DNA from: Eubacteriales bacterium
GTDB lineage: Bacteria; Bacillota; Clostridia; Oscillospirales; CAG-272
DNA length: 64,000 bases
Assembly: GCA_045542075.1 (NCBI GenBank)
Contig: JAZQKI010000001.1
Span: forward strand, 488-64,487
Direction of reading: 5' to 3'
Position numbers and translations under genes: made by a program. A model generated the notes under the pieces. The model was not told the origin of the DNA. It searched no databases and saw only the letters and a program-made list of their open reading frames with translations. This document shows, piece by piece, positions 6,225 to 22,051 of the stretch (positions are counted from its first letter, which is position 1; each line of letters opens with the position of its first letter).

Positions 6225-7313
6225 ATGAATTATAACAGCATCAGACGAAAGACCCGTGAGGTCAGAATCGGTAAAATAGCCATTGGAGGCAATAACAAAG
6301 TTGCCATTCAGTCTATGACAAATACCGATACCAAGGATGCAAAGGCGACCCTGGATCAGATAAAGGAGCTTGCCTGTGCGGGCTGTGATATAGTAAGAAT
6401 TACCGTGCCAGATGAAGAGGCGGCAGAGACCGTCCGATATATAAAGGAGAGCGGTATTGATACGCCAATAGTCGCGGATATTCATTTTGATTACAGGGCG
6501 GCTCTAAAATCTGCGGAGTACGGTGTTGATAAGATAAGAATAAATCCGGGTAATATCGGAGACGACAGCAGGGTGTTTGAGGTAGCAAGAATTTGCCGCG
6601 AGAAAAACATTCCCATAAGAATAGGTGTCAACAGTGGCTCTGTTGAAAAGCATATACTGGCAAAGCACGGCGGTCCCACACCCGAGGCTCTCTGCGAGAG
6701 CGCGTTTTATCACACGTCACTGCTTGAAAAATATGATTTTTATAATACTGTCATTTCAATAAAGGCATCGGGTGTTTCGGAAATGATAGCGGCTAACAGA
6801 CTTGTAGCCGAGAGATGCGACTATCCCATACACCTTGGTGTGACCGAAGCGGGAAGCGAGAGAATGGGCATTATCAAGAGCGCAGCAGGTATTGGATCGC
6901 TCTTGTGTGACGGTATAGGAGACACTTTCCGTGTATCTCTCACTGCGGACCCTGTGCGTGAGATTTCTGCCGCAAGAGATATACTCAGCGCGTTGAATGT
7001 TGAGGGCCAGTGCGGTATGAATATTGTAAGCTGCCCCACCTGTGGACGTACAAAAATTGACCTTATAACGCTTTCAAAGCGTTTTGAGGATGCCGCAAGG
7101 TCCGAAGGAATTCTTGACTATCCTATCAAGGTAGCTCTTATGGGGTGCATTGTCAATGGACCCGGAGAGGCAAGAGAAGCGGATATAGGAATAGCGGGCG
7201 GTGTCGGAGAGGCACTCCTTATCTCTCACGGAGAGATTATTGGAAAGATAAAAGAAGAAGATATTATAAGCACGCTTATTGAAAAGATAAAGGAAATAAA
7301 AGAAAGAGCTTAA
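6225..7313 (+). CDS. ispG: 4-hydroxy-3-methylbut-2-enyl diphosphate synthase
   Basis: The ORF track begins at GTG 6159, but ATG 6225 is preceded by AAGGAGGGAAG. Motifs include RRKTREVRIGKIAIGGNNKVAIQSMTNT...INPGNIG...SCPTCGRT...GCIVNGPGEA. Confidence 0.94.
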   Translation: MNYNSIRRKTREVRIGKIAIGGNNKVAIQSMTNTDTKDAKATLDQIKELACAGCDIVRITVPDEEAAETVRYIKESGIDTPIVADIHFDYRAALKSAEYGVDKIRINPGNIGDDSRVFEVARICREKNIPIRIGVNSGSVEKHILAKHGGPTPEALCESAFYHTSLLEKYDFYNTVISIKASGVSEMIAANRLVAERCDYPIHLGVTEAGSERMGIIKSAAGIGSLLCDGIGDTFRVSLTADPVREISAARDILSALNVEGQCGMNIVSCPTCGRTKIDLITLSKRFEDAARSEGILDYPIKVALMGCIVNGPGEAREADIGIAGGVGEALLISHGEIIGKIKEEDIISTLIEKIKEIKERA

Positions 7314-7314: not shown

Positions 7315-10300
7315 ATGAGTAAGACTTTTTTAGAAATTTTTTATAAATACAAGCCCGACGGCGACAAGCGAGATATACTTGATACCGCAACGGACATAAA
7401 GGTGCAGGCGGACAAGGAAAACAGACTGCTTCAAGCACACGTCAGCTTCCCGCGTATAGTTAAAAAGGACGAGCTGTACCAAATAGAAAGGGAAATAGAA
7501 AAAGCATACGAGCTTAACAGAGTAACGCTGTTTGTGCATTATCCGTCTGAGCTTTTTGGGGAAAATTATATTCCCGAGCTATTGCGCGAAACTGAAACAA
7601 TAGGAATAGTGGCAAAGGGCTTTTTCTCAAAATACAGATTTAATCTTGAAAATTCTACGCTCACTATCGAGATACCTTTCTCGGTGGACGGTGTTTCGTT
7701 ATTGCTTGATGCGAGAACACCCGAAATTATGCAGGGAATAATCCGATCGGAATTTGGCTTGAATATCAAGGTAAATATCATCCATTCCGATGATATGAGC
7801 TTTCTTATGAGTAACAATTCTCTTGAGCAGACTATCCGTGAATTTGACGAGAAAATGAGCAAGCGAGCAATACTGAGCGAGGCAATACGGGCAGATCAGC
7901 CTACAGGACAAGCCACCCCGGCGGATCAGACCTTGCCAAGAATAGCGTCAATATTCAAGGGCGACTCCACGCCTGTAATTGAGGACGGTGTCTGTAGGAT
8001 AGGTCACGCAAAATTTGATATATCATCCCCCGAATACTTTTACGGAGACGCATTCACGCTTCAGCCCGTATCGATTGCCTCTATAACAAGACCGCAGAGA
8101 AATATTGTTGTGATCGGCACTGTCTCGGGCTTTACTAAGGAGCTTAATCGCGCGGGGGACAAGTATAATATAACCTTTGCGATATTTGACGGAAATTCCT
8201 CTATTGAGGTCAAATGCTTTTCTCTTGTGCAAGAGGATGTTGACACTGTCTGCTCAGGCATTAAGGACGGAGCGGTCGTGGCTCTATACGGATATGCGAA
8301 GCGCGAGACCCGCAAGGACAAAACGGAGGGACTTGACTTTCAGTTTTTCTTCAGTGCAGCGGCAAAAATCAAAAGGATACCGCGTACAGATAATGCGCCC
8401 GTCAAGAGAGTAGAGCTTCATCTGCATACAAATATGTCCTTCATGGACGCACTGATCCATCCGGATGATGCGGTAAAGCAAGCGAAGGCTTGGGGACACC
8501 CAGCTATAGCCATAACCGACCACGGAAACGTTCAGGGCTATCAGCAAGCAATGCTGACCAGCGAAAAGATCGGGCAGAAGGTTATTTACGGTATGGAGGC
8601 ATACTTTGTAAATAATACTGCATCTGCTATATACGGTAATTTTAACGAGTCCTTTGATGCTGAAGCCATTGTGTTCGACATTGAGACTACGGGTCTTTCG
8701 GTTCAGAACGACAGAATCACGGAAATTGGAGCGGTCAAGATAAGAAACGGTGAGATTATTGACACCTTCGATATTTTCGTCAATCCCGAAATGGAGATTT
8801 CCGCCGAGATCACCGAGCTTACGTCCATTACTAACGAAATGGTCAAGGATGCTCCGCTTTGCGATGAGGCGTTAAGACTTTTCTTTGAATTTATACATAA
8901 TACAAATCCCGCGCATAAGCCCTTGCTTATTGCGCATAACGCGACGTTTGATACGGGATTTATTCGAGCTGCCGCGCAGAGATACGGAATGGAATTCGAC
9001 TACCCATATCTCGACACTCTTGCGCTCTCAAGATTCCTTAATCCCGACCTCAAAAAGCACAAGCTTGATATAATCGCAAAGCATTATAATCTTGAAGAGT
9101 TCCATCACCACAGAGCGTGTGATGACGCGGATATTCTCGCGAAAATATACTTTAAGATGACAAAGCAGATGCGCGATAGGGATATCGCAAGCTTCACTTA
9201 TCTGTCAAAGGATATGAACGCGAATGCCGATCCACTCAAGGGTGACACCTATCACCAGATAATACTTGTAAAAAACAAGGCAGGACTGAAAAATCTTTAT
9301 AAGCTTGTTTCTTACAGTAATCTCAAATATTTCAAGAAGAGACCGCGTATTCCCAAGACTGAATTGGAAGCACATAGGGAGGGACTTATAATCGGCTCTG
9401 CATGTGAAGCGGGCGAGCTTTTTATGGCTATACTTGAAAATAAGCCCGAGTCCGAAATTGAGGAAATAGTCAATTTCTACGATTATCTTGAGATACAGCC
9501 TATCTCCAACAACCGTTTCCTTATCGCAAAGGGCAAAGCGAGAGATGAGGAGGATCTCAAAAACCTCAACCGCAGAATAGTTGAGCTTGGAGAAAAATAC
9601 AATAAGCCCGTAGTAGCTACCTGCGACGCCCACTTTATGAATCTTGAGGATGAGATATACCGTCAGATACTCCTTGCGGGTCAGAAGTATTCTGACTATG
9701 ATACAGAGAGCCAGCTTTATTTCCGCACGACAGAGGAAATGCTTGAGGAATTCTCATATCTTGGCGAGGAAAAGGCTTATGAGGTCGTAGTAACAAATAC
9801 CAATCTTATCAACGATATGATAGATACCGACATCCGTCCGTTCCCCAAGGGCACGTTCACACCCAATATGGAGGGCGCGGAGGAGGATCTTCAACGAATC
9901 TGCTACGAGAGAGCAAGGTCCATGTACGGAGATCCGCTCCCTGAAATAGTCGCGCAGAGACTTGACAAGGAGCTTACCTCTATTATAAAGAACGGCTTTG
10001 CCGTGCTTTATATGATAGCTCAAAAGCTTGTATGGTACAGCGAAAGTCAGGGATATCTTGTCGGCTCTCGAGGCTCGGTAGGCTCGTCTTTTGTAGCTTC
10101 TATGGCGGGTATTTCTGAGGTAAACCCACTTCCCGCGCATTATTGGTGCTCCGAATGTCAGTATAACGACTTTTCAAATCCCACGGGCGCAGGATCGGGC
10201 TTTGATTTGCCTGACAGACTGTGTCCCCGTTGCGGAAAAAAGCTTCATGCCGACGGACACAATATACCATTTGAGACCTTCCTTGGCTTTTACGGCGATA

Positions 10301-11736
10301 AATCACCCGATATAGACCTGAACTTCTCGGGTGAGGTGCAGGGAAAGGTGCATAAATACACTGAAGAGCTGTTTGGAGCGGAGAACGTGTTCCGAGCGGG
10401 CACTATAGGAACTCTTGCGGACAAGACGGCTTACGGATATATACAAAAATACCTTGAGGACAAGGGCGTCAGCCTCTCACGAGCTGAGGTAAACCGTATG
10501 GTATCCTGCTGTGTGGGAGTTAAGAGAAGCACGGGTCAGCACCCCGGAGGCATAGTCGTTGTTCCTAAGGAATACGAAATATACGATTTCTGCCCAGTCC
10601 AGCATCCAGCAGATGATCCCACGTCGGATATTGTAACAACTCACTTTACGTTTGAATATCTTCACGATACGCTTCTCAAGCTCGATGAGCTTGGACACGA
10701 TATTCCTACCAAGTACAAGTATCTTGAAAAGTATTCAAATACAAGTGTAATGGATGTCCCTATGAATGACCCTGACGTATACGGACTGTTCTTATCCACA
10801 AAACCTCTTGGAATTTCTCCCGAGGATATAGATTGTAATATCGGTACGTTTGGACTCCCCGAGTTTGGTACACGCTTTGTTATCAAGATGGTTGAGGAGG
10901 CAAAGCCAAAGTCCTTCTCAGACCTGCTTCAGATTTCGGGACTCTCTCACGGCACAGACGTTTGGACGGGAAATGCGCAGGACCTTATAAACAACGGAAT
11001 ATGTGATATTTCTCACGTTATAGGATGTCGTGACAACATAATGAACGACCTGATCGCCTACGGTGTTGAGAAATCCCACGCCTTCAAGATAATGGAGTCC
11101 GTTCGAAAGGGAAAAGGACTGACACCCGAATGGGAGGCGGAAATGCGTGAGGCAAACGTCCCCGAATGGTACATAGGCTCATGTAAAAAGATCAAATACA
11201 TGTTCCCCAAGGCACATGCTGCGGCATACGTTATGTCGGCTATACGTCTTGGTTGGTACAAGGTGCATAAGCCACTTGCATTCTACTGCGCAATGCTTAC
11301 TGTTGCGCCGGGTGGATTTGACGCGGCTGTAGTTATGGGAGGCAAGCGCAAGGTGGTTGAGACCATACGGGATATAGACAAGCGTGTAAAGGAAAAGAAA
11401 GAGGTGACACCGAAGGAGATACAAAGCCTTCCCGTGCTTCACCTGGTCAACGAAATATTCGCAAGAGGAATTAAATTCTTGCCGATAAATATCAAAAAAT
11501 CCGATGCTTCCGCATTTGAGCCCGAAAATGGAATGATACGAATGCCGTTTTCAGCTCTCGGCGGTCTTGGAGAGAATGCTGCGGCAAATATTGTTGCGGC
11601 ACGTAATGAGGAGCCGTTTTTCTCGGTAGAGGATTTGCAGATACGCGCTCGACTGACAAAGTCTGTTATTGAGGTGCTACGATCAAACGGAGTGCTTGAG
11701 GGACTTGACGAGACGGATCAGATATCTTTTTTCTGA
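7315..11736 (+). CDS. polC: DNA polymerase III alpha subunit, PolC type
   Basis: 1473 aa. It has a PHP domain (VELHLHTNMS), an internal DEDD exonuclease (VFDIETTGLS...HNATFDTGF...HHRACDDA), a zinc-finger region (CSECQY...CPRCG) and the polymerase core. Confidence 0.97.
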   Translation: MSKTFLEIFYKYKPDGDKRDILDTATDIKVQADKENRLLQAHVSFPRIVKKDELYQIEREIEKAYELNRVTLFVHYPSELFGENYIPELLRETETIGIVAKGFFSKYRFNLENSTLTIEIPFSVDGVSLLLDARTPEIMQGIIRSEFGLNIKVNIIHSDDMSFLMSNNSLEQTIREFDEKMSKRAILSEAIRADQPTGQATPADQTLPRIASIFKGDSTPVIEDGVCRIGHAKFDISSPEYFYGDAFTLQPVSIASITRPQRNIVVIGTVSGFTKELNRAGDKYNITFAIFDGNSSIEVKCFSLVQEDVDTVCSGIKDGAVVALYGYAKRETRKDKTEGLDFQFFFSAAAKIKRIPRTDNAPVKRVELHLHTNMSFMDALIHPDDAVKQAKAWGHPAIAITDHGNVQGYQQAMLTSEKIGQKVIYGMEAYFVNNTASAIYGNFNESFDAEAIVFDIETTGLSVQNDRITEIGAVKIRNGEIIDTFDIFVNPEMEISAEITELTSITNEMVKDAPLCDEALRLFFEFIHNTNPAHKPLLIAHNATFDTGFIRAAAQRYGMEFDYPYLDTLALSRFLNPDLKKHKLDIIAKHYNLEEFHHHRACDDADILAKIYFKMTKQMRDRDIASFTYLSKDMNANADPLKGDTYHQIILVKNKAGLKNLYKLVSYSNLKYFKKRPRIPKTELEAHREGLIIGSACEAGELFMAILENKPESEIEEIVNFYDYLEIQPISNNRFLIAKGKARDEEDLKNLNRRIVELGEKYNKPVVATCDAHFMNLEDEIYRQILLAGQKYSDYDTESQLYFRTTEEMLEEFSYLGEEKAYEVVVTNTNLINDMIDTDIRPFPKGTFTPNMEGAEEDLQRICYERARSMYGDPLPEIVAQRLDKELTSIIKNGFAVLYMIAQKLVWYSESQGYLVGSRGSVGSSFVASMAGISEVNPLPAHYWCSECQYNDFSNPTGAGSGFDLPDRLCPRCGKKLHADGHNIPFETFLGFYGDKSPDIDLNFSGEVQGKVHKYTEELFGAENVFRAGTIGTLADKTAYGYIQKYLEDKGVSLSRAEVNRMVSCCVGVKRSTGQHPGGIVVVPKEYEIYDFCPVQHPADDPTSDIVTTHFTFEYLHDTLLKLDELGHDIPTKYKYLEKYSNTSVMDVPMNDPDVYGLFLSTKPLGISPEDIDCNIGTFGLPEFGTRFVIKMVEEAKPKSFSDLLQISGLSHGTDVWTGNAQDLINNGICDISHVIGCRDNIMNDLIAYGVEKSHAFKIMESVRKGKGLTPEWEAEMREANVPEWYIGSCKKIKYMFPKAHAAAYVMSAIRLGWYKVHKPLAFYCAMLTVAPGGFDAAVVMGGKRKVVETIRDIDKRVKEKKEVTPKEIQSLPVLHLVNEIFARGIKFLPINIKKSDASAFEPENGMIRMPFSALGGLGENAAANIVAARNEEPFFSVEDLQIRARLTKSVIEVLRSNGVLEGLDETDQISFF

Positions 11737-11762
11737 TATGATGTATCAGAAATTATAACAAC

Positions 11763-11793
11763 AAAACCCCTGTGTTTCAAACACAGGGGTTTT
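11763..11793. terminator. bidirectional terminator between polC and the convergent nuclease gene
   Basis: Stem cccctgtgt / acacagggg (11767-11789) is flanked by an A-run on the left and a T-run on the right. Confidence 0.8.
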
Positions 11794-11804
11794 ATTTATT
11801 TGTT

Positions 11805-13667
11805 TTATCTTTTTTTCTTTGTTAGCACAAAGCCTGCCGCGATAGCGGTCACAAGTCCGATTAGGGAAATGCTTACAGTCGAGTCGCAACCTGCATCTGT
11901 TTGATCAGGAGGGGGAGTCTCGCTGTCATTTGGCTTGGAATCGGTGCTCGGACTCTCGGTACTCGGGCTCTCTGTGGGATCTTCGGGTGTGTCGTCGGAT
12001 GATTCGAGCTTGGGAATAGAATCAAGCTTTTCTTCGCCACAATCTTCGCATACGCTCTTTGAAATTCCCGAGCTGCTCTCGGTTGCGGGAACTATCACCT
12101 CAGGCTCTCCAAAGCTATGGCCGGAGACAGGGAAGACCGTACCGACAACGAGAAGCTCTCCACAATCCGCGCAGACCTTGTCGCCACTGTATCCATCCTC
12201 GGTACAGCTCGGTTTAGCTCCTGAAATAACTGTATTTTCGTGAGCGCAGGGAGTTGGAGGAGTCTCTGTAGGTTTCTCCGTAGGAGGTTCAGAGGGAGTC
12301 TCCGTGGGCTTTTCCGTAGGAGGCTCGGTGGGAGTCTCGGTTATTGCATCGTCATCTAATATTTTTACACACATAACGTAATTTGCAACGCCATTTATGT
12401 ATTTAGTCGCCATTTCTATTTTGCCATAGTAATTTTTGACGTATCCTCGGGCGACAATAGTATCACCGACCTTAAAGCCTGAAATGCCGCTACCCATATT
12501 TATCGTGTAGATAAGGAAATCATCTATTCCGTCTGTTATATATACGTCCTTGTAGTAGCTTCCGGTCTGACCTATTGCAACTACCTTGCCTTTTACGTAG
12601 AACACCTCGTCTGAAGATTCATCATTTGCAAGATCTGAGTTTGCAATGAGTATCTGTGACACGGTAAGAGGGTCCTCCAAGGTTCCGTTAGGAGTTGTCG
12701 GGGGAGGAATAACGGGTTTTTCAGTGGGAGTTTCTGTAGGAGCTTCTGACGGCTTTTGGGTGGGAGTTGTTGATGTGCCGCTCATAGCCTCACCTGACGG
12801 TGTTACCATATCGTCGGGGATCTCTTCGTCAAAAAGCACCCACGCAAGCTCGGGGTAGTCGATAAATACATTTCTGTTGCCCTGAATGTTCTGGATGACC
12901 TCGTTTCGTCCCATTTCCCAAGTGTCGACAGGGTCAAGCTCGCACCACTCAAGAAGAACGTCAACACTCTGGAAAACCTTGGTGATATCGGTTGCGCCCC
13001 AATCAGAGCCCCATCTTACGTAAACGTACAGACATATTCTTGCAACGTCGCCCTTGACATTATCCAGGGGCTCATAATACGTGGAGCTGTGTCCACCGAG
13101 GTAGCCTGATGCGGGATTTGATCCATAGACTGCCTTACCGGTTGCCGCATATCCGTATTTTTTGTTACTGCGAGTGCTATTTACAACAGCGTCAGAAGGA
13201 CGAATGTGATGCATGTCAGCTCCGCCACCCGTGGTTGAATTACCGCCGAGAGACTTGGGCCAAACGTGCTCGCGATTCCAACCGTTCCATTGACTCATAG
13301 TAGCGCTGTAGCTTGTATAGATAAGGGATACGCTTTCGTCTCCGTTTTGACAGTCCGTACGGTTAGCCTTATAATGACAGTCATCGTAGGATGATATATA
13401 CTTGTGTGTACTCCTCATAAGCGTTTGAAGGGAAGAATACAGTGACGACTCAGAAAGAGTCGAAAGGTTATCGTACGTATAATTTCCCGTATAGTAAGAC
13501 GGCGCGCTTGTTCCGTTAAGCGAGGTGCAGATAACATCTCTTTGACCTGAATTGTAATTCTTTGAATAAGACGAGGGCTGCGTTGCTGCAAGGATCGGCA
13601 GTATGCTTCCTATTATAAGGAAAATTGATAGCAACACCGCCACAAGGCTCTTTGTATAGCGTTTCAT
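11805..13667 (-). CDS. secreted Endonuclease-I-family (EndA/Vvn/Bsn-like) nuclease with OB-fold-like module, Cys-rich module and C-terminal membrane-anchor tail (paralog 1)
   Basis: 620 aa. The RBS is GGAGGAC. The signal peptide is MKRYTKSLVAVLLSIFLIIGSILPILA. Nuclease motifs are NREHVWPKSLGG and DMHHIRPSDAVVNSTRSNKKYG. Two PTE-type linkers flank a beta-rich module of about 110 aa (VFYVKGKVVAIG...VGDTIVARGYVKNYYGKIEM). These are followed by a Cys-rich module and the tail GLVTAIAAGFVLTKKKR. Confidence 0.85.
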   Translation of the reverse strand: MKRYTKSLVAVLLSIFLIIGSILPILAATQPSSYSKNYNSGQRDVICTSLNGTSAPSYYTGNYTYDNLSTLSESSLYSSLQTLMRSTHKYISSYDDCHYKANRTDCQNGDESVSLIYTSYSATMSQWNGWNREHVWPKSLGGNSTTGGGADMHHIRPSDAVVNSTRSNKKYGYAATGKAVYGSNPASGYLGGHSSTYYEPLDNVKGDVARICLYVYVRWGSDWGATDITKVFQSVDVLLEWCELDPVDTWEMGRNEVIQNIQGNRNVFIDYPELAWVLFDEEIPDDMVTPSGEAMSGTSTTPTQKPSEAPTETPTEKPVIPPPTTPNGTLEDPLTVSQILIANSDLANDESSDEVFYVKGKVVAIGQTGSYYKDVYITDGIDDFLIYTINMGSGISGFKVGDTIVARGYVKNYYGKIEMATKYINGVANYVMCVKILDDDAITETPTEPPTEKPTETPSEPPTEKPTETPPTPCAHENTVISGAKPSCTEDGYSGDKVCADCGELLVVGTVFPVSGHSFGEPEVIVPATESSSGISKSVCEDCGEEKLDSIPKLESSDDTPEDPTESPSTESPSTDSKPNDSETPPPDQTDAGCDSTVSISLIGLVTAIAAGFVLTKKKR

Positions 13668-13763
13668 TACGTCCTCCGAATTCTATAAATTTAACAGTTC
13701 TTGCAGTCTGATTTTTATTATACGCTTTGTTTTTTGCAATAATAAATACAGACATACCATAAA

Positions 13764-13781
13764 CCCCTCTGTGCAGAGGGG
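13764..13781 (-). terminator. hairpin between the two nuclease genes
   Basis: Stem cccctct / agagggg sits immediately downstream of the paralog-2 stop codon. The T tail is weak. Confidence 0.5.
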
Positions 13782-13791
13782 ATTTATGTTT

Positions 13792-15396
13792 TTATCTTTT
13801 TTTCTTTGTTAGCACGAAGCCTGCCGCGATAGCGGTCACAAGTCCGATAAGGGAAATGCTTACGGTTGATCCGCAGCCTTCATCTGTTTGATCGGGCGGG
13901 GGAGTCTCGCTGTCATTTGGCTTGGAATCTGCGCTCGGACTCTCTGTGGGATTCTCGGGTGTGTTGTCGGATGATTCGAGCTTAGGAATAGAATCAAGCT
14001 TTTCTTCGCCACAACCTTCGCATACGCTCTTTGAAATTCCTGAGCTACTCTCGGTTGCGGGAACTATCACCTCAGGCTCTCCAAAGCTATGGCCGGAGAC
14101 AGGGAAGACCGTACCGACAACGAGAAGCTTTCCGCAATCCGCGCAGACCTTATCGCCACTGTATCCATCCTCGGTGCAGCTCGGTTTAGCACCTGAAATA
14201 ACTGTATTTTCGTGAGTGCAGGGAGTTGGGGCTTCGGTAGGAGTCTCTGTCGGAGTTTCTGTAGGTGTCTCCGTGGGCCTTTCCGTAGGAGCCGTTGTAG
14301 GAGTCTCCGTGGGCCTTTCCGTAGGAGCCGTTGTAGGAGTCTCTGTGGGCTTTTCTGTAGGAGTTGTTGTAGGAGTCTCTGTGGGCTTTTCCGTGGGTTT
14401 TTCTGTAGGAGCCGTTGTAGGAGCCTCTGTGGGCTTTTCTGTAGGAGCCGTTGTAGGAGTTTCCGTAGGCTTTTCCGTAGGAGTTGTGGAGCTGCCACCC
14501 ATGGCTTCACCGGAGGGAGTTACCATATTTTCAGGAACTTCCTTGTCGAAAAGTATCCAGGCAAGCTCGGGGTAGTCGATAAATACATTTCTGTTACCCT
14601 GAATGCTCTGAACGACCTCGTTTCGTCCCATTTCCCACGTGTCAACAGGATCAAGCTCACACCATTCAAGAAGAACGTCAACACTTTGGAATACCCTTGT
14701 AATGTCTGAGCATTTTGAATATTCGCCGCCCCATCTTACGTGAACGTAAAGGCATATTCTCGCAACGTCACCCTTGACATTGTCAAGCGGTTCATAATAG
14801 TTTCCCGTCATAGTTCCGCCAACCAATCCGCTCAAGTTTCCTGTCGAGCTGGAATTGCCAGAAACATTACCGTATTTTAGGTTTCCTCGTTGAGAATTTG
14901 TTCTGTTTTCTGAAGGACGGATATGATGCAGGTCGGCACCGGCACCTTCTTTATCAAATCCTCCAAGGCTTTTGGGCCAAACGTGTTCACGGTTCCAGCC
15001 GTTTCCATTGTTGTATTCGGCGTGGCTGGACGCATAGGATGTGTAGAGAGTAATTATAGATTTAGCGTCTGCGTTCTCGCAATCTGTTTTGTTGGCGTAA
15101 TCACGGCAATTTGAATAAGATGTTATTCTTGTGTGAGTATCCTTCATCAGTTTGCGCAGGGTAGAGAGCAAGGCTGACGAGGAAAGCTCCGAGAGGTTAT
15201 CGTACGTATAATCTCCCGTATAGTAAGCTGTCGCACTTGTTCCGTTAAGAGTTGTGCATACAACGTGCCTTTTGCCCGAGTTGGCAGACTTTGAATAAGC
15301 CGAGGGCTGCGTAGATGCAAATATTGGAATTATACTTCCGACTATAAGGAAAACAATCAACAGCATTGTTACAGTATGCTTTAAGAATCTTTTCAT
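13792..15396 (-). CDS. secreted Endonuclease-I-family nuclease with long Pro/Thr repeat linker, Cys-rich module and C-terminal anchor tail (paralog 2)
   Basis: The track ORF extends to 15564, but ATG 15396 follows CGGAGGC and gives a signal peptide, MKRFLKHTVTMLLIVFLIVGSIIPIFA. Nuclease motifs are NREHVWPKSLGG and DLHHIRPSENRTNSQRGNLKYG. The C-terminal 140 aa or so are nearly identical to paralog 1. Confidence 0.85.
   Translation of the reverse strand: MKRFLKHTVTMLLIVFLIVGSIIPIFASTQPSAYSKSANSGKRHVVCTTLNGTSATAYYTGDYTYDNLSELSSSALLSTLRKLMKDTHTRITSYSNCRDYANKTDCENADAKSIITLYTSYASSHAEYNNGNGWNREHVWPKSLGGFDKEGAGADLHHIRPSENRTNSQRGNLKYGNVSGNSSSTGNLSGLVGGTMTGNYYEPLDNVKGDVARICLYVHVRWGGEYSKCSDITRVFQSVDVLLEWCELDPVDTWEMGRNEVVQSIQGNRNVFIDYPELAWILFDKEVPENMVTPSGEAMGGSSTTPTEKPTETPTTAPTEKPTEAPTTAPTEKPTEKPTETPTTTPTEKPTETPTTAPTERPTETPTTAPTERPTETPTETPTETPTEAPTPCTHENTVISGAKPSCTEDGYSGDKVCADCGKLLVVGTVFPVSGHSFGEPEVIVPATESSSGISKSVCEGCGEEKLDSIPKLESSDNTPENPTESPSADSKPNDSETPPPDQTDEGCGSTVSISLIGLVTAIAAGFVLTKKKR
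14225..14488 (-). repeat. in-frame Pro/Thr-rich tandem repeat (PTEKPTETPTTA-type linker) inside nuclease paralog 2
   Basis: The translation is TTPTEKPTETPTTAPTEKPTEAPTTAPTEKPTEKPTETPTTTPTEKPTETPTTAPTERPTETPTTAPTERPTETPTETPTETPTEAPTP. The DNA shows an imperfect 24/36-nt periodicity. Confidence 0.9.
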
Positions 15397-15504
15397 TCCG
15401 GCCTCCGAGATACAAATATTTTTGAGCATAATATCACTAATACCATTATACCATATATTTGATTTTTTTGCAATAGCTATTATATATATATTGATAAATT
15501 TCGT

Positions 15505-15584: not shown

Positions 15585-16268
15585 TTAGGATACCTTAAAC
15601 TGTTCAAAATTGAATCCGCTTTCGTAGAACGCCGCCGAGTTTACTATAACCGAGCGGTTGATTCTCATACCCTCAAGGGAAATGCAGTAAGCAAATGCAT
15701 ACTCATCTATATATTTCAGATTTGCTGGGAGAATTACTCGCTTAAGATTCATACAGGCATTAAACGTACTGTTGCTTATTTCACGCAGCTTTGCGGGGAG
15801 AGTTGCGCTTTCAAGGTTCTTGCAGCCCTCAAACACACCTGTTCCCATGAAAAACAGACTGTCGGGAAGAACTATATCTCTGATAGCCGTGCAGTAGGAA
15901 AACGCCTTATCTTCAATGGATTCAAGACGCTTCGACAAGGAAACCCGGCAGAGCTTTTTACAACCCATAAATGCACGCTCCTCGATAAATACTACTCCGG
16001 GGGCAATGATTATCTCAAGATCGGAGCACCAAGCAAACGCGTAAGCACCAATGGTGTTAACGGTAGCGGGGAGATTTATGGATTCGATGCCGTCGCATCT
16101 GAAAAAAGCCTTCTCAGAGACGCCAACAACGATTCTGCCATCGGGAAGCTTGTCCGGTATTACGATATTTGTGTCTGTACAAAAGCCAATGCCGTTTACA
16201 AGCACTGTGGTCTGACTGTCCTTGACGTACTCAAGTCCTATTGAAAACTTAATATCCAACCAAAACAC
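15585..16268 (-). CDS. BspA-type leucine-rich repeat (LRR_5) protein, no signal peptide
   Basis: 227 aa. It has repeated units of about 23 aa of the form C.xL.xI.LP..l..I...AF..C (for example CDGIESINLPATVNTIGAYAFAWCSDLEII and CKNLESATLPAKLREISNSTFNACMNLKRV). The antisense ORF 15579-16244 is a shadow. Confidence 0.8.
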   Translation of the reverse strand: MFWLDIKFSIGLEYVKDSQTTVLVNGIGFCTDTNIVIPDKLPDGRIVVGVSEKAFFRCDGIESINLPATVNTIGAYAFAWCSDLEIIIAPGVVFIEERAFMGCKKLCRVSLSKRLESIEDKAFSYCTAIRDIVLPDSLFFMGTGVFEGCKNLESATLPAKLREISNSTFNACMNLKRVILPANLKYIDEYAFAYCISLEGMRINRSVIVNSAAFYESGFNFEQFKVS

Positions 16269-16532
16269 GCTCCTTTCTGCTCAGGTATCCAAAAATCGCT
16301 TTGGTACAGTTATTTTACACCTCTTTCGATATTTTGTCAAGTCCAACTTTGTAAATATTTATATTCTGATGTGAAAGAGTGTCTTTTTTCCTTAAAGGTA
16401 CAAGCCCTTCTCACTAAACAATATTAAATATATTTGAGAAATATTACCTCAAAATTTGTTTTATTAACTTTGCGTTAATTATTTGTTGCTATAATTATAG
16501 TGTATATTTGTATTTTAGGAGAGGATTACTCT

Positions 16533-16976
16533 ATGAAAACAACTGTTAAGGTAAAAAAGCTTTCGGATAAGGCGATCATTCCCACGTATGGGACGGAGTT
16601 TTCGGCAGGCGCGGACATTTATGCGCTCCTTGATGAACCGGTGACTATAGCTCCGGGTGAAACCAAGCTTATTCACACAGGTCTTGCTTTCGCTATTCCC
16701 GAGGGCCTTGTAGGTCTTAATTTTGCGCGTAGCGGAATGGCAACAAAGCGCGGACTTGCTCCTGCAAATAAGGTTGGCGTTATTGATAGCGACTATCGCG
16801 GAGAGATTATGGTAGCACTTTATAATCAGGGAGACGTTCCCCAGACCGTCGAGCATGGCGACAGAATTGCGCAGATGGTATTTGTTCCATATTATACCGC
16901 AAGCTTTGAGCAGACTGACGAGCTTGAAAAAACAGCTCGCGGCGAGGGCGGCTTTGGCTCTACGGGAACAAAATAA
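16533..16976 (+). CDS. dut: dUTP diphosphatase
   Basis: ATG 16533 follows AGGAGAGG. Motifs include SAGADIY...ARSGMATKRG...GVIDSDYRGEI...GDRIAQMV...RGEGGFGSTG. Confidence 0.95.
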   Translation: MKTTVKVKKLSDKAIIPTYGTEFSAGADIYALLDEPVTIAPGETKLIHTGLAFAIPEGLVGLNFARSGMATKRGLAPANKVGVIDSDYRGEIMVALYNQGDVPQTVEHGDRIAQMVFVPYYTASFEQTDELEKTARGEGGFGSTGTK

Positions 16977-17007
16977 CACAATTTACATAAAGAGAAAGGC
17001 AAATAAA

Positions 17008-18237
17008 ATGACAAGGATCGATATTTTCTCCGGATTTCTCGGAGCAGGAAAAACAACACTTATTAAAAAGCTTATTGAGGAGGCCTACAAGGGCGAAAAA
17101 ATAGTTCTTATCGAAAACGAGTTTGGTGAGATAGGTATTGACGGCGGATTTCTCTCTGAGGCAGGTGTGCATATAAACGAGATGAACTCAGGCTGTATCT
17201 GCTGCTCGCTTGTCGGCGACTTTGCGGAGGCGCTCAAAAAGGTAATAAGCGAATATCAGCCCGACAGAGTTCTTATCGAGCCCTCAGGCGTTGGTAAGCT
17301 TTCCGACGTTATTAAGGCGGTACAAAATGCCGACACAGAGGGAGCGGTGCTCAACGGCTTTACGACCGTAGTGGATGCGAACAAGTGCAAGATGTATATG
17401 AAAAATTTTGGAGAGTTCTTTAATGACCAGGTCGAGCATGCGGGCTGCATAATATTCAGCCACACGGACAACGCAAGTCAGAAGAAGATAGACGAGGGCG
17501 TAGCCCTCATCCGTGAGCATAATCCCAATGCCGTGATAGTCACAACTCCTTGGGGACAACTCTCAGGCGCGCAGCTTCTTGAGGCTATGGAGCGCAAGGA
17601 TACTCTTGCCGCTGAGCTTGAAAAGCTTGAGCATGAACATCATCACCACGGACATCATCATCACCACGACCACGAGGAATGTTGCCATCACGAGCACCAC
17701 CACGACCACGATCACGACGAGTGTTGCCATCACGAGCATCATCACGACCATGACCACGATCACGATGAGTGCTGCCACGGACACCACCACGATCATGACC
17801 ACGAGGAATGCTGCCACGGACACCACCACGATCATGACCACGGGGAGTGCTGTCACGGACATCATCACGACCATGACCACGAGGAATGCTGCCATGATCA
17901 CCATGAGCATCACTTAGATGCAGACGGAAACTGCTCCTGCGGTCACCACCATCACCACCATGCCGATGAGGTGTTCGAGAGCTGGGGAACGGAGACCACA
18001 AAGAAGTTCAATGCAGAGCAGCTTAAGGCGGCTCTTGACGAGCTTTGCGACGAGAATAAATACGGCATAATTCTGCGCGCAAAGGGAATAGTCGCATCCG
18101 ACGACGGTAGATGGATCCATTTCGACTACATCCCCGGCGAGCCCGACGTACGTTTTGGCGGAGCGTCTGTAATCGGCAGACTCTGCGTTATAGGCTCAAA
18201 GATGAACAAGGATGCGATAATCTCGCTTTTTATGTAA
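17008..18237 (+). CDS. COG0523/CobW-family G3E GTPase (metallochaperone-type) with long His/Asp/Cys-rich insertion
   Basis: ATG 17008. The track ORF start at 16855 overlaps dut. The Walker A motif is GFLGAGKTTLIKKL. The CxCC motif is GCICCS. ENEFGEIGID and IEPSGVG are also present. A His-rich segment of about 110 aa precedes the CobW C-terminal domain (ILRAKGIV...WIHFDYI). Confidence 0.9.
   Translation: MTRIDIFSGFLGAGKTTLIKKLIEEAYKGEKIVLIENEFGEIGIDGGFLSEAGVHINEMNSGCICCSLVGDFAEALKKVISEYQPDRVLIEPSGVGKLSDVIKAVQNADTEGAVLNGFTTVVDANKCKMYMKNFGEFFNDQVEHAGCIIFSHTDNASQKKIDEGVALIREHNPNAVIVTTPWGQLSGAQLLEAMERKDTLAAELEKLEHEHHHHGHHHHHDHEECCHHEHHHDHDHDECCHHEHHHDHDHDHDECCHGHHHDHDHEECCHGHHHDHDHGECCHGHHHDHDHEECCHDHHEHHLDADGNCSCGHHHHHHADEVFESWGTETTKKFNAEQLKAALDELCDENKYGIILRAKGIVASDDGRWIHFDYIPGEPDVRFGGASVIGRLCVIGSKMNKDAIISLFM
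17629..17961 (+). repeat. in-frame His/Asp/Cys-rich repeat region (six ECCH units)
   Basis: The translation is EHEHHHHGHHHHHDHEECCHHEHHHDHDHDECCHHEHHHDHDHDHDECCHGHHHDHDHEECCHGHHHDHDHGECCHGHHHDHDHEECCHDHHEHH...CSCGHHHHHH. Units of about 42 nt recur at the DNA level. Confidence 0.9.
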
Positions 18238-18254
18238 TTTAAGGAGGGAAGAAT

Positions 18255-19202
18255 ATGACACCAAATATTCCCGTATATCTTTTCACAGGCTTTCTTGAGG
18301 GCGGTAAGACTCATATAATCCAGGAGTCTATGTGCGACGAGCGCTTCAACACAGGCGAAAAGACCTTGATAATTCTCTGCGAGGAGGGGATCGAGGAGCT
18401 TGATCCCACGCTTTTCTACGGAAAGAACGTATATTTTGCTACTATTGACGACGTATCAGACCTCACTCCCGAAAAGCTTGATGCTTGCCGTAACGGTCAT
18501 AAAATAGACCGTGTAATCATTGAGTACAACGGTATGTGGATGCTTAAGGATTTGTATGAAAATCTCCCGAAGGAGTGGTTTATCTTCCAGAATATGATGT
18601 TTGCGGACGCAAATACCTTCTTTACCTACAACGCAAATATGCGCTCGCTTATGGTAGATAAGCTTCTCGACTGTGAGATGATAGTCCTCAACCGTACTCC
18701 CGAGAACATCGACAAGGAGGAGGTGCACAAGATAGTCCGCGGTATCTCCCGCCGTGCCTCCATTACCTATGATTATCCCGACGGACATGTCGAGTACGAC
18801 GAGATAGAGGATCCTCTGCCTTTTGACATCAATGCCCCCATAATTGAGATAGACGAGAACGACTATGCCGTATGGTACAGAGATCTCGCCGAGGAGACTG
18901 AAAAATACGAGGGTAAGACTGTTAAATTCAAGGGAATTATCGCGCGCGACGTAAAGCTCGGCAAGGACGCGATAGTTATCGGCAGACACGTAATGACCTG
19001 CTGCGTTGAGGATATTGCCTACAACGGACTTGTATGCAAGTTTGAGTCTGCAGTTCCTTATAAAACGCGCGATTGGCTCACGGTCACGGGTAAGATCAAG
19101 ATAGAGAAGAACAAGCTCTACGGACGCCCCGGACCAGTGCTTTACGCGACAAGCGCGGCATATACCTCCAAACCCGAAAAAGAGGTCGCGACTTTTTATT
19201 GA
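18255..19202 (+). CDS. divergent COG0523-like GTPase lacking CxCC, with C-terminal CC-motif domain (DUF1980/TIGR03943-C-like by recollection)
   Basis: 315 aa. The RBS is AAGGAGGGAAG. The Walker A motif is GFLEGGKTHII. The CxCC position reads ILCEEG. The C-terminal 100 aa or so read YEGKTVKFKGII...IGRHVMTCCVEDIAYNGLVC...WLTVTGKI. Confidence 0.7.
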   Translation: MTPNIPVYLFTGFLEGGKTHIIQESMCDERFNTGEKTLIILCEEGIEELDPTLFYGKNVYFATIDDVSDLTPEKLDACRNGHKIDRVIIEYNGMWMLKDLYENLPKEWFIFQNMMFADANTFFTYNANMRSLMVDKLLDCEMIVLNRTPENIDKEEVHKIVRGISRRASITYDYPDGHVEYDEIEDPLPFDINAPIIEIDENDYAVWYRDLAEETEKYEGKTVKFKGIIARDVKLGKDAIVIGRHVMTCCVEDIAYNGLVCKFESAVPYKTRDWLTVTGKIKIEKNKLYGRPGPVLYATSAAYTSKPEKEVATFY

Positions 19203-19226
19203 TAAGTGATTCTCGGAGGAGATAAA

Positions 19227-21977
19227 ATGAAAAAGTTTTTAAGAGTTTTAGTATTACTTCTCGTGCTTTCAATGAGTTTTTCCGTATTCACCGCATGTGA
19301 TAAGGGCGAAAACTCTATAACGGCACCCACGGAAGTATCTACGGACGCTCCAACAGAAGCATCTACGAGCGCGCCCACGGAGACACCCACAAGTGCTCCG
19401 ACAGAGGCGCCCACGAGTGCTCCCACAGAGGCGCCCACAAGCGCTCCCACAGAAGCGGCTACAAACGTGCCCACGGAAGCGCCTACGAGCGCACCCACAG
19501 AAGCACCCACGGATGCACCGACAGAGACGCCTACGGACGCACCGACTGAAGCACCCACGGAAACGCCTACTGAACATATTCATGAATATGGTGATTGGGT
19601 TGTAAGGATAGAGCCAACCTGTGTTGATAAAGGAATAAAGTCAAGTGACTGCGCGTGCGGTGACTATAAGCTCGGATATATTGATGCTCTCGGCCACACG
19701 GCGGGTGCTGCGGCAACGTGTACAACCGAGCAAAAATGTACCGTTTGCGGAGACACACTTGCAGCAGCCCTTGGACATAAGCCCAAAACGGTAGAGGAAA
19801 ACAGAATAGAGTCTACTTGTACGGAGAAGGGCTCGTATGATGCGGTAGTATATTGTTCCGATTGCAATGACGAATTGAGCAGAGAAAACAAATCTATAAA
19901 CGCTCTCGGACATACAGCAGGTGCTGAGGCAACATGTATCACGGCTCAGAAATGTACTGTTTGCAAAGAGATTCTTGTGGCGGCGCATGGGCACAAGCCT
20001 GCTGTAGCAGTTGAAGAAAACAGAGTGGAGCCGACTTGTACTAAAAACGGTTCGTATGATGTGGTTGTATATTGTTTAGCGTGTGGCGATGAGTTAAGCA
20101 GGGATGTAGTGAGTGTGAATGCGCTTGGACATAAGCCTGGTATTGAATCGACCTGCACAACTGATCAGACATGCACTGCGTGCGGGGAAATATTGGTTGA
20201 GGCTCTTGGACATGATTACGTTAACAAAATATGCACAGTTTGTGGGAAACTAAAGACAAGCGAAGGATTGCGATTCGTTTCCAAAGGTGGAGGAATTTGC
20301 TATGTCAGCAGTATAGGCAATTGTACGGATACGGACATAATTATCCCAGCAGTATCGCCTACGGGTGAAACTGTTACGGGTATAGACTATGCAGCGTTTG
20401 AAAGCCGTGCTGACATTACGAGTATCGTTATTCCTGATACTGTAACAAACATTGGACCTTTTGCTTTCATTCGTTGCAGTGGACTTATGATGATAGAAAT
20501 TCCCGATAGTGTAACAAGCATATCTCGAGGAGCATTTGAGGATTGTACTAGCATTGCAAATATAGTCATCCCAAACGGTGTCACGAGCATTGGCGAAAGA
20601 ACATTCTACGGTTGCAGTAGCCTTGTGAATTTAGTAATTCCCGACAGTATAACAAGCATAGGTGAGAGGGCGTTCTACGGTTGCGGTAGTCTTGCAAATT
20701 TGGAAATTCCCAACAGCTTATCAAGTATAGGTGAGTATGCATTCTATAATTGCAGTAATCTTACGAGTATAGAAATCCCTGACAATGTAACAAGCATAGG
20801 AAATAATGCATTTGCTGGTTGCACAAACCTTACAAGTGTCGGGCTGGGAGAGAACAGTCGATTAGCTAGTATAGGAGATTATGCATTTTATAATTGCAGT
20901 AAACTTACAAGCATAGCAATTCCTGATGATGTAATAAGTGTAGGTAAGGAATCGTTTGATGATTGCATTAATCTTACGCATGTTGTCTTTAGCGAAAACA
21001 ATTCCTTAATGAGCATAGGAGAACGGGCATTCTCGGGTTGCAGAAACCTTACAAGTATAAATATTCCCAGTAGTGTGTTGAGCATTGGTGCAGGAGCATT
21101 CTCAGGCTGCAATAGCCTTAAGACTATTGATATACCTCATGGTATGACGAGCATAAGCGATGCAATGTTATCCGGGTGCAGTAGCATTGAGAACATAACA
21201 ATCCCCGATGGAGTAGTGAGCATAGGAAATAATGCGTTCGCTGGCTGCAGTAGTATTACCAACATAGAAATTCCCGACAGCGTAACGAGTATAGGGATTG
21301 CTGCGTTTGATTCTTGCAGTAGCCTTAAGAGTATAAAAGTCCCCGACAGCATAACGAGCATAAGCAATGCTATGTTTTATTGTTGTAGTGGACTTGAGAA
21401 AGTTGAATTCCCCCAAAATGTAACAAACATAGGTGCTGATGCGTTTGGAGGTTGCAACAGCCTGGTTAGTATCGTCATACCTAACAGTGTAATAAGTATA
21501 GATAAGCAAGCATTTATCGCTTGCAAAAACTTGGAAAGTGTTGTTATTTCTGACGGAGTAACAAGCATAGGTGATTCTGCATTTGCTAATTGTACTAACC
21601 TTACAAGTGTGGTCATTCCCGACAGTATCACGAGTATTGGTTCATATGTATTTGCTAATTGCAGTAGCCTTGAAGGGATTGCGATTCCCAACCACATAAC
21701 AGGTATAGGTGAATATGCATTCTATAATTGCAGTAAACTTACAAGCATAGCAATCCCCGACAATTTAATGAGCATAGGCAAGCGTGCATTTTCGGGTTGT
21801 AGTATCCTTACGAGTATAAATATTCCCAAAGGAGTGACGAGCATAGGTGGTTCTGCGTTCTATGGTTGCAGCAGCCTTACAATATATTGTGAATTGGCAT
21901 CTAAACCTTCAGGATGGAGTTCTAATTGGAACTCTTCCGGTTGCCCCGTGGTCTGGGGTTATAAGGCGGAGGAATAA
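19227..21977 (+). CDS. surface lipoprotein: Pro/Thr linker, Cys-rich modules and about twenty BspA-type LRR_5 repeats
   Basis: ATG 19227 follows GGAGGAG. The lipoprotein signal is MKKFLRVLVLLLVLSMSFSVFTAC. An APTE(A/T)PTS linker comes next, then repeated ALGH...C..C modules, then repeats of about 23 aa (IPDSVTSIG..AF..CSSL..I). The C-terminus is KPSGWSSNWNSSGCPVVWGY. Confidence 0.88.
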   Translation: MKKFLRVLVLLLVLSMSFSVFTACDKGENSITAPTEVSTDAPTEASTSAPTETPTSAPTEAPTSAPTEAPTSAPTEAATNVPTEAPTSAPTEAPTDAPTETPTDAPTEAPTETPTEHIHEYGDWVVRIEPTCVDKGIKSSDCACGDYKLGYIDALGHTAGAAATCTTEQKCTVCGDTLAAALGHKPKTVEENRIESTCTEKGSYDAVVYCSDCNDELSRENKSINALGHTAGAEATCITAQKCTVCKEILVAAHGHKPAVAVEENRVEPTCTKNGSYDVVVYCLACGDELSRDVVSVNALGHKPGIESTCTTDQTCTACGEILVEALGHDYVNKICTVCGKLKTSEGLRFVSKGGGICYVSSIGNCTDTDIIIPAVSPTGETVTGIDYAAFESRADITSIVIPDTVTNIGPFAFIRCSGLMMIEIPDSVTSISRGAFEDCTSIANIVIPNGVTSIGERTFYGCSSLVNLVIPDSITSIGERAFYGCGSLANLEIPNSLSSIGEYAFYNCSNLTSIEIPDNVTSIGNNAFAGCTNLTSVGLGENSRLASIGDYAFYNCSKLTSIAIPDDVISVGKESFDDCINLTHVVFSENNSLMSIGERAFSGCRNLTSINIPSSVLSIGAGAFSGCNSLKTIDIPHGMTSISDAMLSGCSSIENITIPDGVVSIGNNAFAGCSSITNIEIPDSVTSIGIAAFDSCSSLKSIKVPDSITSISNAMFYCCSGLEKVEFPQNVTNIGADAFGGCNSLVSIVIPNSVISIDKQAFIACKNLESVVISDGVTSIGDSAFANCTNLTSVVIPDSITSIGSYVFANCSSLEGIAIPNHITGIGEYAFYNCSKLTSIAIPDNLMSIGKRAFSGCSILTSINIPKGVTSIGGSAFYGCSSLTIYCELASKPSGWSSNWNSSGCPVVWGYKAEE
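19321..19572 (+). repeat. in-frame Pro/Thr/Ala tandem repeat (APTEAPTS-type linker)
   Basis: The translation is APTEVSTDAPTEASTSAPTETPTSAPTEAPTSAPTEAPTSAPTEAATNVPTEAPTSAPTEAPTDAPTETPTDAPTEAPTETPTE, with 24-nt periodicity. Confidence 0.9.
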
Positions 21978-22051
21978 TTCATTGTAATCAAAAATGGTGC
22001 ATCCTCATCTGTCAGCAAAGCTGACACCTTCCCCTCAGGGGGAAGCCTGAA

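Follow-up and report, generated by a model that had tools for sequence, protein, structure and literature searches.

Introduction

Cell-anchored nucleases such as SpnA of Streptococcus pyogenes, SsnA of Streptococcus suis and YhcR of Bacillus subtilis combine a signal peptide, one or several OB-fold (oligonucleotide/oligosaccharide-binding) domains, a nuclease domain and a C-terminal cell anchor, and gene conversion between paralogs is known for the streptococcal emm-like genes, the neisserial opa and pil genes and the tufA/tufB pair. Within the Endonuclease I family, the nuclease Dns acts on extracellular DNA, in biofilm, in the evasion of neutrophil extracellular traps and in the control of transformation (PMC3212620, PMC3764145). 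Tripartite sorting signals containing a cysteine have been described by Haft, in an account that does not mention Firmicutes (bioRxiv 10.1101/2023.06.07.544157). Here, we analyzed two tandem genes, A and B, of this same nuclease family, carried by a stretch of 64,000 nucleotides (nt; hereafter the window) of contig JAZQKI010000001.1 from a bacterium of the order Eubacteriales. The explanation that we favor as a whole, and that we hold to be probable, is that the locus consists of tandem genes whose products are Endonuclease I-family enzymes, namely non-specific nucleases of the beta-beta-alpha-metal type that are exported and tethered to the membrane or the cell surface, and that their mosaic identity arose by recombination between paralogs.

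Genes A and B encode proteins of the Endonuclease I family

A preliminary description of the locus, made by eye, had proposed two co-oriented Endonuclease I genes on the basis of two motifs, and this family membership is now established. The Pfam model PF04231 (Endonuclease_1), whose curated gathering cutoff is 25 bits, matched the product of gene A with 123.6 bits (E 1.4e-35) and that of gene B with 125.6 bits (E 3.4e-36), and the motifs NREHVWPKSLGG and D[ML]HHIRPS...N..R.N.KYG were located at amino acids (aa) 131-142 and 151-172 of A and at aa 135-146 and 155-176 of B. With the NCBIfam model of the E. coli-type deoxyribonuclease I equivalog (NF011716), the two proteins reached only 34-35 bits versus a cutoff of 372; since this score is far below the cutoff, A and B are members of the family and not equivalogs. 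The catalytic segments read NREH in both proteins, and VNSTRSN in A and TNSQRGN in B, and the Glu-His and Asn residues were invariant in an alignment of 35 homologues. Homology to the Vvn/Endonuclease I structures 1OUP, 2PU3 and 2G7E was weak (E ~1e-6) and covered aa ~123-270 only; in the 1OUP alignment, Asn163 of gene A is aligned with the Asn of the Vvn segment EVNGDRSN. In Vvn, the catalytic Glu-His pair is Glu79 and His80, and the metal-ligand Asn is Asn127.

Both proteins share the same order of modules, namely a putative signal peptide, the catalytic domain, a Pro/Thr linker, a Cys-rich domain, an acidic linker and a tail made of Gly-Cys, a transmembrane (TM) helix and KKKR. Gene A alone carries in addition an OB fold followed by a further Pro/Thr linker, both placed before the Cys-rich domain, and an extra N-terminal region of ~100 aa is present in these nucleases. 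The earlier reading of signal-peptide nucleases with different middles is supported. Read by eye, each protein starts with MKR, continues with a hydrophobic stretch of ~20 aa and shows an Ala-X-Ala-like site (ILA/AT in one, IFA/ST in the other), features consistent with export. As dN/dS is ~0.1-0.3 throughout both genes, the two copies are under purifying selection.

The 3' ends of the two genes are near-identical, including at synonymous sites

The preliminary description had seen almost identical 3' ends, with a few dozen substitutions and one 15-nt indel, and the count agrees with it: an alignment of the two tract copies (438 nt, 94% identity) shows 25 substitutions, a single 15-nt indel and a perfect run of 82 nt. 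The identity of A and B is mosaic and not uniform, as had also been proposed. In a codon-aligned sliding window, it amounts to 40-78% (nt) over the N-terminal two-thirds of the catalytic domain, to ~90% in a block at aa ~235-280 and to 90-98% over the last ~145 codons; it drops to 70-80% in the Pro/Thr linker that precedes the tract and to ~50% just beyond the stop codons.

Such a profile could be explained by purifying selection alone, the near-identical blocks being the most constrained parts of old paralogs, without recombination. In the tract, however, synonymous sites are near-identical too: the same codon is used at 71/78 positions with an identical amino acid, versus 58/109 in the N-terminal catalytic part, and none of 20,000 shuffles reached the score of the C-terminal segment in a permutation test (maximal segment of synonymous codon identity). 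Synonymous divergence (dS, by the Nei-Gojobori method) between A and B is 0.13 in the Cys-rich domain and 0.29 in the tail, versus 1.5-2.1 in the N-terminal catalytic part. By contrast, dS between this tail and the orthologous tails of the sister species (genes of the g2 type, described below) is 1.4-1.8, and the adjacent polC gene gives 0.69-1.0 between those species, so that both the tract and its timing with respect to speciation are established. We also compared neighbor-joining trees (200 bootstraps) of the two parts of the genes. In the catalytic-domain tree, A falls in the g1/A-type clade and B groups with L41_g2 and L44_g2, both with 100% bootstrap; in the C-terminal tree, the A and B tails are sisters, again with 100% bootstrap. 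The nearest relative of the A tail is the B tail of the same genome (96% identity, versus at most 78% elsewhere). Because of the low dS and the incongruent trees, selection alone cannot explain the tail, and the C-terminal identity stems from recombination.

A recent tandem duplication of the whole gene, after which positive selection drove the catalytic domains apart rapidly and the tails changed little, would also leave alike tails. The two genes are adjacent and co-oriented, they have their architecture in common, and copy number varies, with one gene in the relative L042 and two in the other relatives. Against this, the sister species possess orthologues of the A-type as well as of the B-type catalytic domain (78-82% nt identity), in the two fully supported clades mentioned above; the mutual dS of the two types is saturated (1.5-2.1), and their dN/dS is ~0.2-0.3, not above 1. 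Since each catalytic type has sister-species orthologues and dS is saturated, the A/B duplication predates speciation, and a recent duplication appears hardly plausible to us.

Gene A joins a g1-type head to a g2-type tail

Domain maps covered 7 loci with 13 genes in all. In four relatives with conserved synteny (L041, L044, L001 and L043), the order is LRR_5 - g1 - g2 - polC, and the window has LRR_5 - B - A - polC. Genes of the g1 type have a signal peptide of the MKRY type, followed by an A-type catalytic domain, an OB fold of type 1, a long Pro/Thr linker and the Gly-Cys tail; the Cys-rich domain of the window type is missing from g1 orthologues, which have none at all or a different Cys array. 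The g2 type has an MKRF-type signal peptide, the conserved promoter TTGCAA-17-TGnTATAAT and a B-type or A'-type catalytic domain, followed in some genes by an OB fold of type 2, then by the Cys-rich domain and the Gly-Cys tail.

Gene B is a complete g2, promoter included. As for gene A, collinearity blast searches aligned it with g1 from -13 nt as far as the Pro/Thr linker (about 12258), and from about 12320 on with the g2 tail, the downstream spacer and polC of the relatives. Because collinearity switches there, gene A is the product of a fusion, within the linker repeats, between a g1 head and a g2 tail, and across positions 12249-12356 the identity of its linker to the B linker climbs from 30% to 97%. 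Paralog gene conversion had been proposed beforehand; recombination between the paralogs was indeed found, in another form than homogenization of pre-existing homologous ends, since g1 orthologues lack the Cys-rich domain of g2. The two near-identical tails are, as read from this collinearity, two copies of one g2 tail. We also considered a single unequal crossover, or an excision followed by reintegration, starting from the g1-g2 order, and rejected both, as no single-event path fits.

Other rearrangements were observed at the same locus. In L001 (3390-7025), both tandem genes have A-type catalytic domains, with a mutual dS of 0.61-0.70 that is below the one between this species and the others, a value suggesting that, in that lineage, the catalytic domain of g2 was independently converted by g1. 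L042 has a single g2-type gene (2195-4000), with a third (C-type) catalytic domain reading WTCNREHVWPQ, in which a loop of ~21 aa is deleted, and with an OB2 domain and Cys tail 89-92% identical to those of L41_g2; a hairpin resembling the g1 terminator persists within 210 nt upstream of this gene, suggesting a deletion of g1. In L043, an rve-family transposase fragment (6018-6533) lies directly downstream of g2, at the place of polC in the other relatives, and is the sole trace of a mobile element seen at the locus.

A second block is conserved across the family

The second near-identical block that had been reported, VDVLLEWCELDPVDTWEMGRNEV.Q.IQGNRNVFIDYPELAW, is real as a similarity: A and B differ at 13/135 nt in a 45-codon window. 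As a conversion tract in the window it was rejected. In all 36 pairs made from nine genes of five genomes, orthologous or paralogous alike, the block differs at 12-22/135 nt (84-91% identity) with a dN of ~0.02-0.05. It is the segment most conserved across the family, its residues mostly have two-fold-degenerate codons, and it is aligned with PVDEWE...IQGNHNPF of Vvn (motif PVD.WE...IQGN.N.F). A permutation test within the catalytic domain alone gave p ~0.01. As every family pair is equally similar, the block in the window reflects conservation and not demonstrable conversion. Purifying selection alone thus holds for this second block, conserved as far as the Vvn of Vibrio; for the 3' tract it faces the near-identical synonymous sites and the entire absence of the Cys-rich domain from g1 orthologues, and we consider it very unlikely as the explanation of both.

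A conspecific strain confirms the structure and carries a second tract

A look-up of the exact gene A product gave no match. Through P0121, a member of the 90% cluster of gene A, we found a conspecific strain, L045, in an independent ENA assembly from another sample (102-kb contig). Its flanks are 97-99% identical to those of the window, and it keeps both the order LRR-B-A-polC and the chimeric gene A.

This strain bears directly on a possible artefact of metagenome assembly, in which a jump of the assembler in the Pro/Thr linker would have produced a false chimera and a false gene order. The window is apparently metagenome-assembled, the exact protein was found on one NCBI contig (72 kb), and the junction lies inside 36-nt tandem repeats; tandem repeats are a classic site of misassembly. 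The L045 assembly nevertheless shows the same structure independently, with 13 substitutions in the tail of its gene A, and misassembly is therefore ruled out in our judgment. Moreover, what comes after the gene B terminator is the unique sequence that lies upstream of gene A, and the tail copies are not a collapsed repeat, because 25 sites and one indel differ between them. An artefact is thus scarcely credible, and the chimera is established in two assemblies.

Between the two strains, the tails of the B orthologues differ by 3 substitutions and those of the A orthologues by 13, and the paralogous tails by 25-27. As orthologous tails are closer to each other than paralogous ones, the tail event is older than the divergence of the strains, and no later exchange has renewed it. 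The preliminary description had spoken of ongoing conversion; for the C-terminal event this does not apply, but recombination is recurrent, because L045 carries a separate A-type tract inside its gene B. Along this gene (L45_B), codons 1-22 are closest to window B (1/66 differences), codons 23-80 have no good match (45/171 differences to B and 38/171 to A), codons 81-236 are A-type (23/450 differences to its own gene A, versus 186/444 to window B), and from codon 237 onward the sequence is again closest to window B (5/222 differences). Informative sites agree, with 181 A-type versus 12 B-type sites in codons 81-236 and 27 B-type versus 1 A-type past codon 260. The 3' end of this A-type tract of ~460 nt falls at the start of the conserved block, which acts as a point of exchange. 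Gene A of L045 is intact and gene B of the window is B-type throughout; the strain polymorphism is thus established, and the transfer reads as non-reciprocal, with the donor retained. The tracts of the two events are 5-6% diverged. The Pro/Thr linkers also vary in length between the strains, gene A by one 36-nt unit and gene B being ~26 aa shorter in L045, a polymorphism consistent with repeat slippage or unequal exchange.

Instead of an exchange between resident paralogs, the mosaics could result from alleles imported by homologous recombination from other strains or species. Codons 23-80 of L45_B are unmatched by the sampled genes (at best 34-36/171 differences, ~79-80% identity), the OB2 domain and Cys tail of the L042 gene are near-identical to those of L41_g2 (0.89-0.92 nt identity) and yet accompany an unrelated C-type catalytic domain, and a transposase stands beside g2 in L043. 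On the other hand, the tail of gene A is closest to the B tail of its own genome, with the identities and the bootstrap given above, and codons 81-236 of L45_B are closest to the resident gene A (95% identity). We consequently judge import unlikely as the general source of the mosaics and retain recombination between the resident paralogs.

Domain layout of the two proteins

The different middle domains announced for the two genes were found in gene A only, in the form of an OB fold, and gene B has only Pro/Thr linker repeats at this place. An AlphaFold2 (AF2) model of gene A, built on the 35-sequence alignment, was confident in the OB region, with a predicted local distance difference test (pLDDT) score of ~90 over aa ~330-437 and an all-beta structure (aa 355-436); the pLDDT of the Cys-rich domain was 76-91. 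Foldseek matched this model in the PDB to lysyl-tRNA synthetases and to the OB folds of Stn1/CST, over ~100-125 aligned columns and with probability 1.0, which establishes the OB fold. The N-terminal anticodon-binding domain of lysyl-tRNA synthetase is itself an OB fold. The matched stretch is presumably aa 327-437, the sole confidently modeled domain of matching size, and this fold may lend gene A additional substrate binding. In gene A, PF01336 was below threshold (E 0.029); it is recorded for the homologues P0002, P0010, P0012 and P0013, with up to three such domains in homologues. The linker of gene B gave a weak match to Pfam PT.

The Cys-rich module contains CxxC...CxxC, two more Cys and one His, and gave sub-threshold zinc-ribbon matches only; from its residues it appears zinc-ribbon-like. 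In some homologues, a module of the form C.H..T......A.C...GY(S/T)GD..C..CG......G......GH occurs in 4 to ~8 copies. Homologues with Cys-rich repeats are g1 of L044 (3896-6403), which bears a different Cys array, and P0011, P0014, P0018 and P0027. No Pfam family reaches its threshold on the Cys-rich module, which is an extracellular repeat of high portability.

The Gly-Cys C-terminal tail

Both proteins terminate in GC[DG]STVSISLIGLVTAIAAGFVLTKKKR, and the Gly-Cys pair is invariant in all 13 genes of the locus and in the examined distant homologues that have such a tail. We rejected an LPXTG/sortase anchor: the model TIGR01167 (LPXTG_anchor) aligns with the helix and the basic part only (19.1 bits, profile positions 9-33), Rumino_NPXTG gives 13.5 bits versus a cutoff of 23.5, and neither tail has an LPXTG/NPXTG motif, the residues before the helix being DQTD[AE]GC[DG]ST. 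The curated CTERM models (MYXO, JDVT, Synerg and CGP) gave no match at E <=10. Among the Pfam-annotated neighbors of the locus (window open reading frames, ORFs, at 714-7313 and 16500-23044, and syntenic relatives), no CPBP/Rce1-type protease was found; no genome-wide search was made.

A word-indexed protein search with the 41-aa tail returned no matches, and an exhaustive search of 1.84 billion representatives with a 32-aa tail returned 4 significant ones. The same tail was found on unrelated proteins, namely the two NAGPA-domain proteins P0123 and P0124, which came from the exhaustive search, and a secreted 542-aa non-nuclease ORF of L023 (10623-12248) that has no Pfam match. These 4 matches suffice to show the portability of the tail, not to size its family. 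By its sequence, the tail follows the tripartite pattern, with an invariant Cys, a TM helix, a basic C-terminal cluster and several unrelated passengers.

Many family members are devoid of the Gly-Cys tail (P0017, P0020, P0022, P0026, P0039, P0066, P0075, P0081 and others). These tail-less members end in a conserved amphipathic motif, either ...EEKIVAI(L/I)SxNA(I/L)YSxVxxLxTR(G/A/N) or ...D(A/S)EKILILLTLGxxDxxLLxxLSK.

Genomic setting of the locus

As presented in Table 1, the two genes are co-oriented on the minus strand. They lie between the convergent polC gene (7315-11736, plus strand) and an LRR_5 gene (15585-16268, minus strand). The surroundings form a classic housekeeping block of Firmicutes, with pyrH-uppS-cdsA-dxr-rseP-ispG-polC on the polC side; on the other flank, LRR_5 is followed by dut, the gene of a CobW GTPase rich in His, DUF1980 and the gene of an LRR_5 protein of 923 aa. 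The pair thus occupies a conserved core-genome site (uppS-cdsA-dxr-rseP-ispG-polC / nucleases / LRR_5-dut-cobW). Related loci come from metagenome-assembled genomes of uncultured Oscillospiraceae, Eubacteriales and 'Ruminococcus' from the guts of yak, sheep, deer and other ruminants. No mobile element was found among the Pfam-annotated neighbors (the same window ORFs, 714-7313 and 16500-23044), no third paralog within the window, and no other window protein with the Gly-Cys tail. The promoter-like site upstream of gene B shows ~85% conservation when compared with the sequences preceding g2 in L041, L001, L043 and L042. Plus-strand ORFs inside the genes (e.g., 11935-12243 and 14216-14575) were discarded as antisense read-throughs of the repetitive linker and tail.

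Table 1. Features of the nuclease locus, in window coordinates.
Feature	Position	Strand	Remarks
Gene A	11805-13667	-	620 aa; ORF call
Gene B	13792-15396	-	534 aa counted from MKRF start; ORF call
Gene A, near-identical tract: Cys-rich domain, acidic Ser/Pro linker, Gly-Cys anchor, stop	11805-12257	-	
Gene B, copy of the same tract	13792-14229	-	
Gene A tail: GCDSTV, ~20-aa hydrophobic helix, KKKR	11808-11891	-	
Gene B tail: GCGSTV, hydrophobic helix, KKKR	13795-13878	-	
Gene A Pro/Thr linker, 36-nt units; g1/g2 junction zone	12249-12356	-	Tandem Repeats Finder (TRF) array 12259-12338
Gene B Pro/Thr linker repeats, ~91 aa, where gene A has the OB domain	14221-14493	-	TRF arrays 14240-14485; alignments
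OB-fold domain, gene A only, aa 327-437	12357-12689	-	AF2 and Foldseek
Gene A conserved block (VDVLLEWC...YPELAW)	12840-12965	-	
Gene B, same conserved block; 3' junction of the L045 conversion tract	14557-14682	-	
Gene B segment replaced by A-type sequence in L045	14700-15159	-	codons ~80-233
Gene A active-site motifs NREHVWPKSLGG (His134) and DMHHIRPSDAVVNSTRSNKKYG (Asn163)	13152-13277	-	
Gene B active-site motifs (His138, Asn167)	14869-14994	-	
Gene B promoter-like site TTGCAA, 17 nt, TG-TATAAT	15445-15473	-	
Terminator-like hairpin after gene B	13764-13781	-	
Terminator-like hairpin, bidirectional, separating gene A from convergent polC	11760-11796	-	

Some neighboring genes also deserve description. 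The two LRR_5 proteins are BspA-type (19206-21977, plus strand, 923 aa, and 15585-16268, minus strand, 227 aa) and bracket dut-cobW-DUF1980. In L041, L043, L044 and L045, which are syntenic relatives, the small LRR_5 gene likewise adjoins the nuclease genes, and a 214-aa ORF stands at its position in L042, with no Pfam match on record. The CobW-family GTPase (16855-18237, plus strand) contains an insert of ~110 aa made of His/Asp/Cys-rich HHHDHDH(E/D)ECCH repeats, which looks like a metal-binding or metallochaperone region. Its orthologues are shorter (419 aa in L041, 393 aa in L044 and 368 aa in L045), so the length of the insert is variable.

Discussion

We propose that the mosaic identity of A and B is the footprint of non-allelic homologous recombination between paralogs. 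In a first event, recombination inside the Pro/Thr repeats of the linker would have joined a g1-type head with a g2-type tail, giving rise to gene A after the split from the sister species and before the two sampled strains parted. This event would have left two tail copies of ~450 nt, which have since come to be 25 substitutions apart. In a second event, in strain L045, ~460 nt of A-type catalytic sequence would have been copied into gene B, ending at the ultra-conserved block. The homology needed for these exchanges would come from the repeats and the conserved blocks, with the result that catalytic, OB and Cys-rich modules are shuffled between the genes. Long Pro/Thr stalks would carry the proteins at the cell surface, where either the C-terminal helix or a Cys anchor produced by processing would hold them, and the tethered nucleases would degrade extracellular nucleic acid. 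Their role may lie in nutrient (extracellular DNA) scavenging, in the remodeling of biofilm or in competition, much as the preliminary description had suggested.

Several points weigh against this proposal. Because codons 23-80 of L45_B match neither paralog, at least one event involved an unsampled donor, possibly from another lineage, and the donor or the timing of the L45_B tract is uncertain, because it is 5% diverged from gene A, versus 1-3% for the flanks of the two strains. The permuted gene order needs at least two events; their exact sequence was not reconstructed, and the rooting is ambiguous. Activity, substrate and localization are what we infer for every member of the clade, and the pLDDT of the AF2 model was only 41-57 near the active-site loops (residues 128-193). 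Finally, gene A showed no sigma-70-type promoter that we found convincing.

A more tentative idea, which we regard as rather doubtful, is that the tail is an undescribed Cys-dependent sorting signal of Oscillospiraceae and that the polC-adjacent locus is a selected hotspot of diversification. In that case, the tail would be cleaved at or near the Cys and covalently attached to lipid or to the wall by a dedicated enzyme, in analogy with MYXO-CTERM, and the catalytic, OB and Cys-rich modules would be shuffled under pressure from phages, host antibodies or competitors, and not by neutral drift.

If the favored explanation is correct, the locus provides a natural example of modular evolution by paralog recombination at a core-genome site of an uncultured gut lineage, with tract boundaries that coincide with the linker repeats and with the most conserved catalytic motif. 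The analysis also delineates a large clade of Gram-positive-type Endonuclease I proteins in which OB folds, Cys-rich repeats and anchors are freely mixed, and such proteins could contribute to the turnover of extracellular DNA in rumen and hindgut. The presence of the Gly-Cys tail on unrelated surface proteins may point to an unrecognized anchoring route in Clostridia. Current understanding is not overturned by this locus, whose mode of recombination is well documented and fairly ordinary for surface-protein genes.

Compared with known systems, A and B have the same PF04231 catalytic domain (beta-beta-alpha-metal, or His-Me finger) as Vvn of Vibrio vulnificus (1OUP), EndA of E. coli and Dns of V. 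cholerae, with the Glu-His general-base motif, the Asn metal ligand and the C-terminal PVD.WE...IQGN.N.F motif in common. However, these are single-domain enzymes of ~210-235 aa, periplasmic or secreted, from Gram-negative bacteria, whereas A and B are multidomain proteins of 534-620 aa from Clostridia. Their functional layout, with a signal peptide, an OB fold, a nuclease domain and an anchor, resembles that of SpnA, SsnA and YhcR, whose nuclease folds are of the exo-endo-phosphatase or SNase type and whose anchors are LPXTG/sortase anchors, in contrast to the Endonuclease I fold and the lack of LPXTG here. The exchanges resemble those of the emm-like, opa/pil and tuf genes in their non-reciprocal tracts of a few hundred nt with conserved or repetitive bounds, in their incongruent trees and in their polymorphism between strains. 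Unlike in those systems, there is no sign of programmed or high-frequency switching and there are no silent cassettes, both copies being complete genes, and, in evolutionary time, the exchanges seem to be occasional. The tail resembles MYXO-CTERM-like signals in its short Cys signature (Gly-Cys-[GDKS]), followed by a hydrophobic helix and a basic C-terminal end, and in its unrelated passengers; it differs from them by a basic cluster that is Lys-rich and not Arg-rich, by its host, a Gram-positive-type member of the Clostridia, and by the lack of a match to an NCBIfam model. Recombination among tandem surface-protein paralogs and the Endonuclease I catalytic family are thus already known, and what is new is the architecture, in which an OB fold, a Cys-rich domain and a Gly-Cys tail accompany the Endonuclease I domain, together with its modular shuffling at a core locus.

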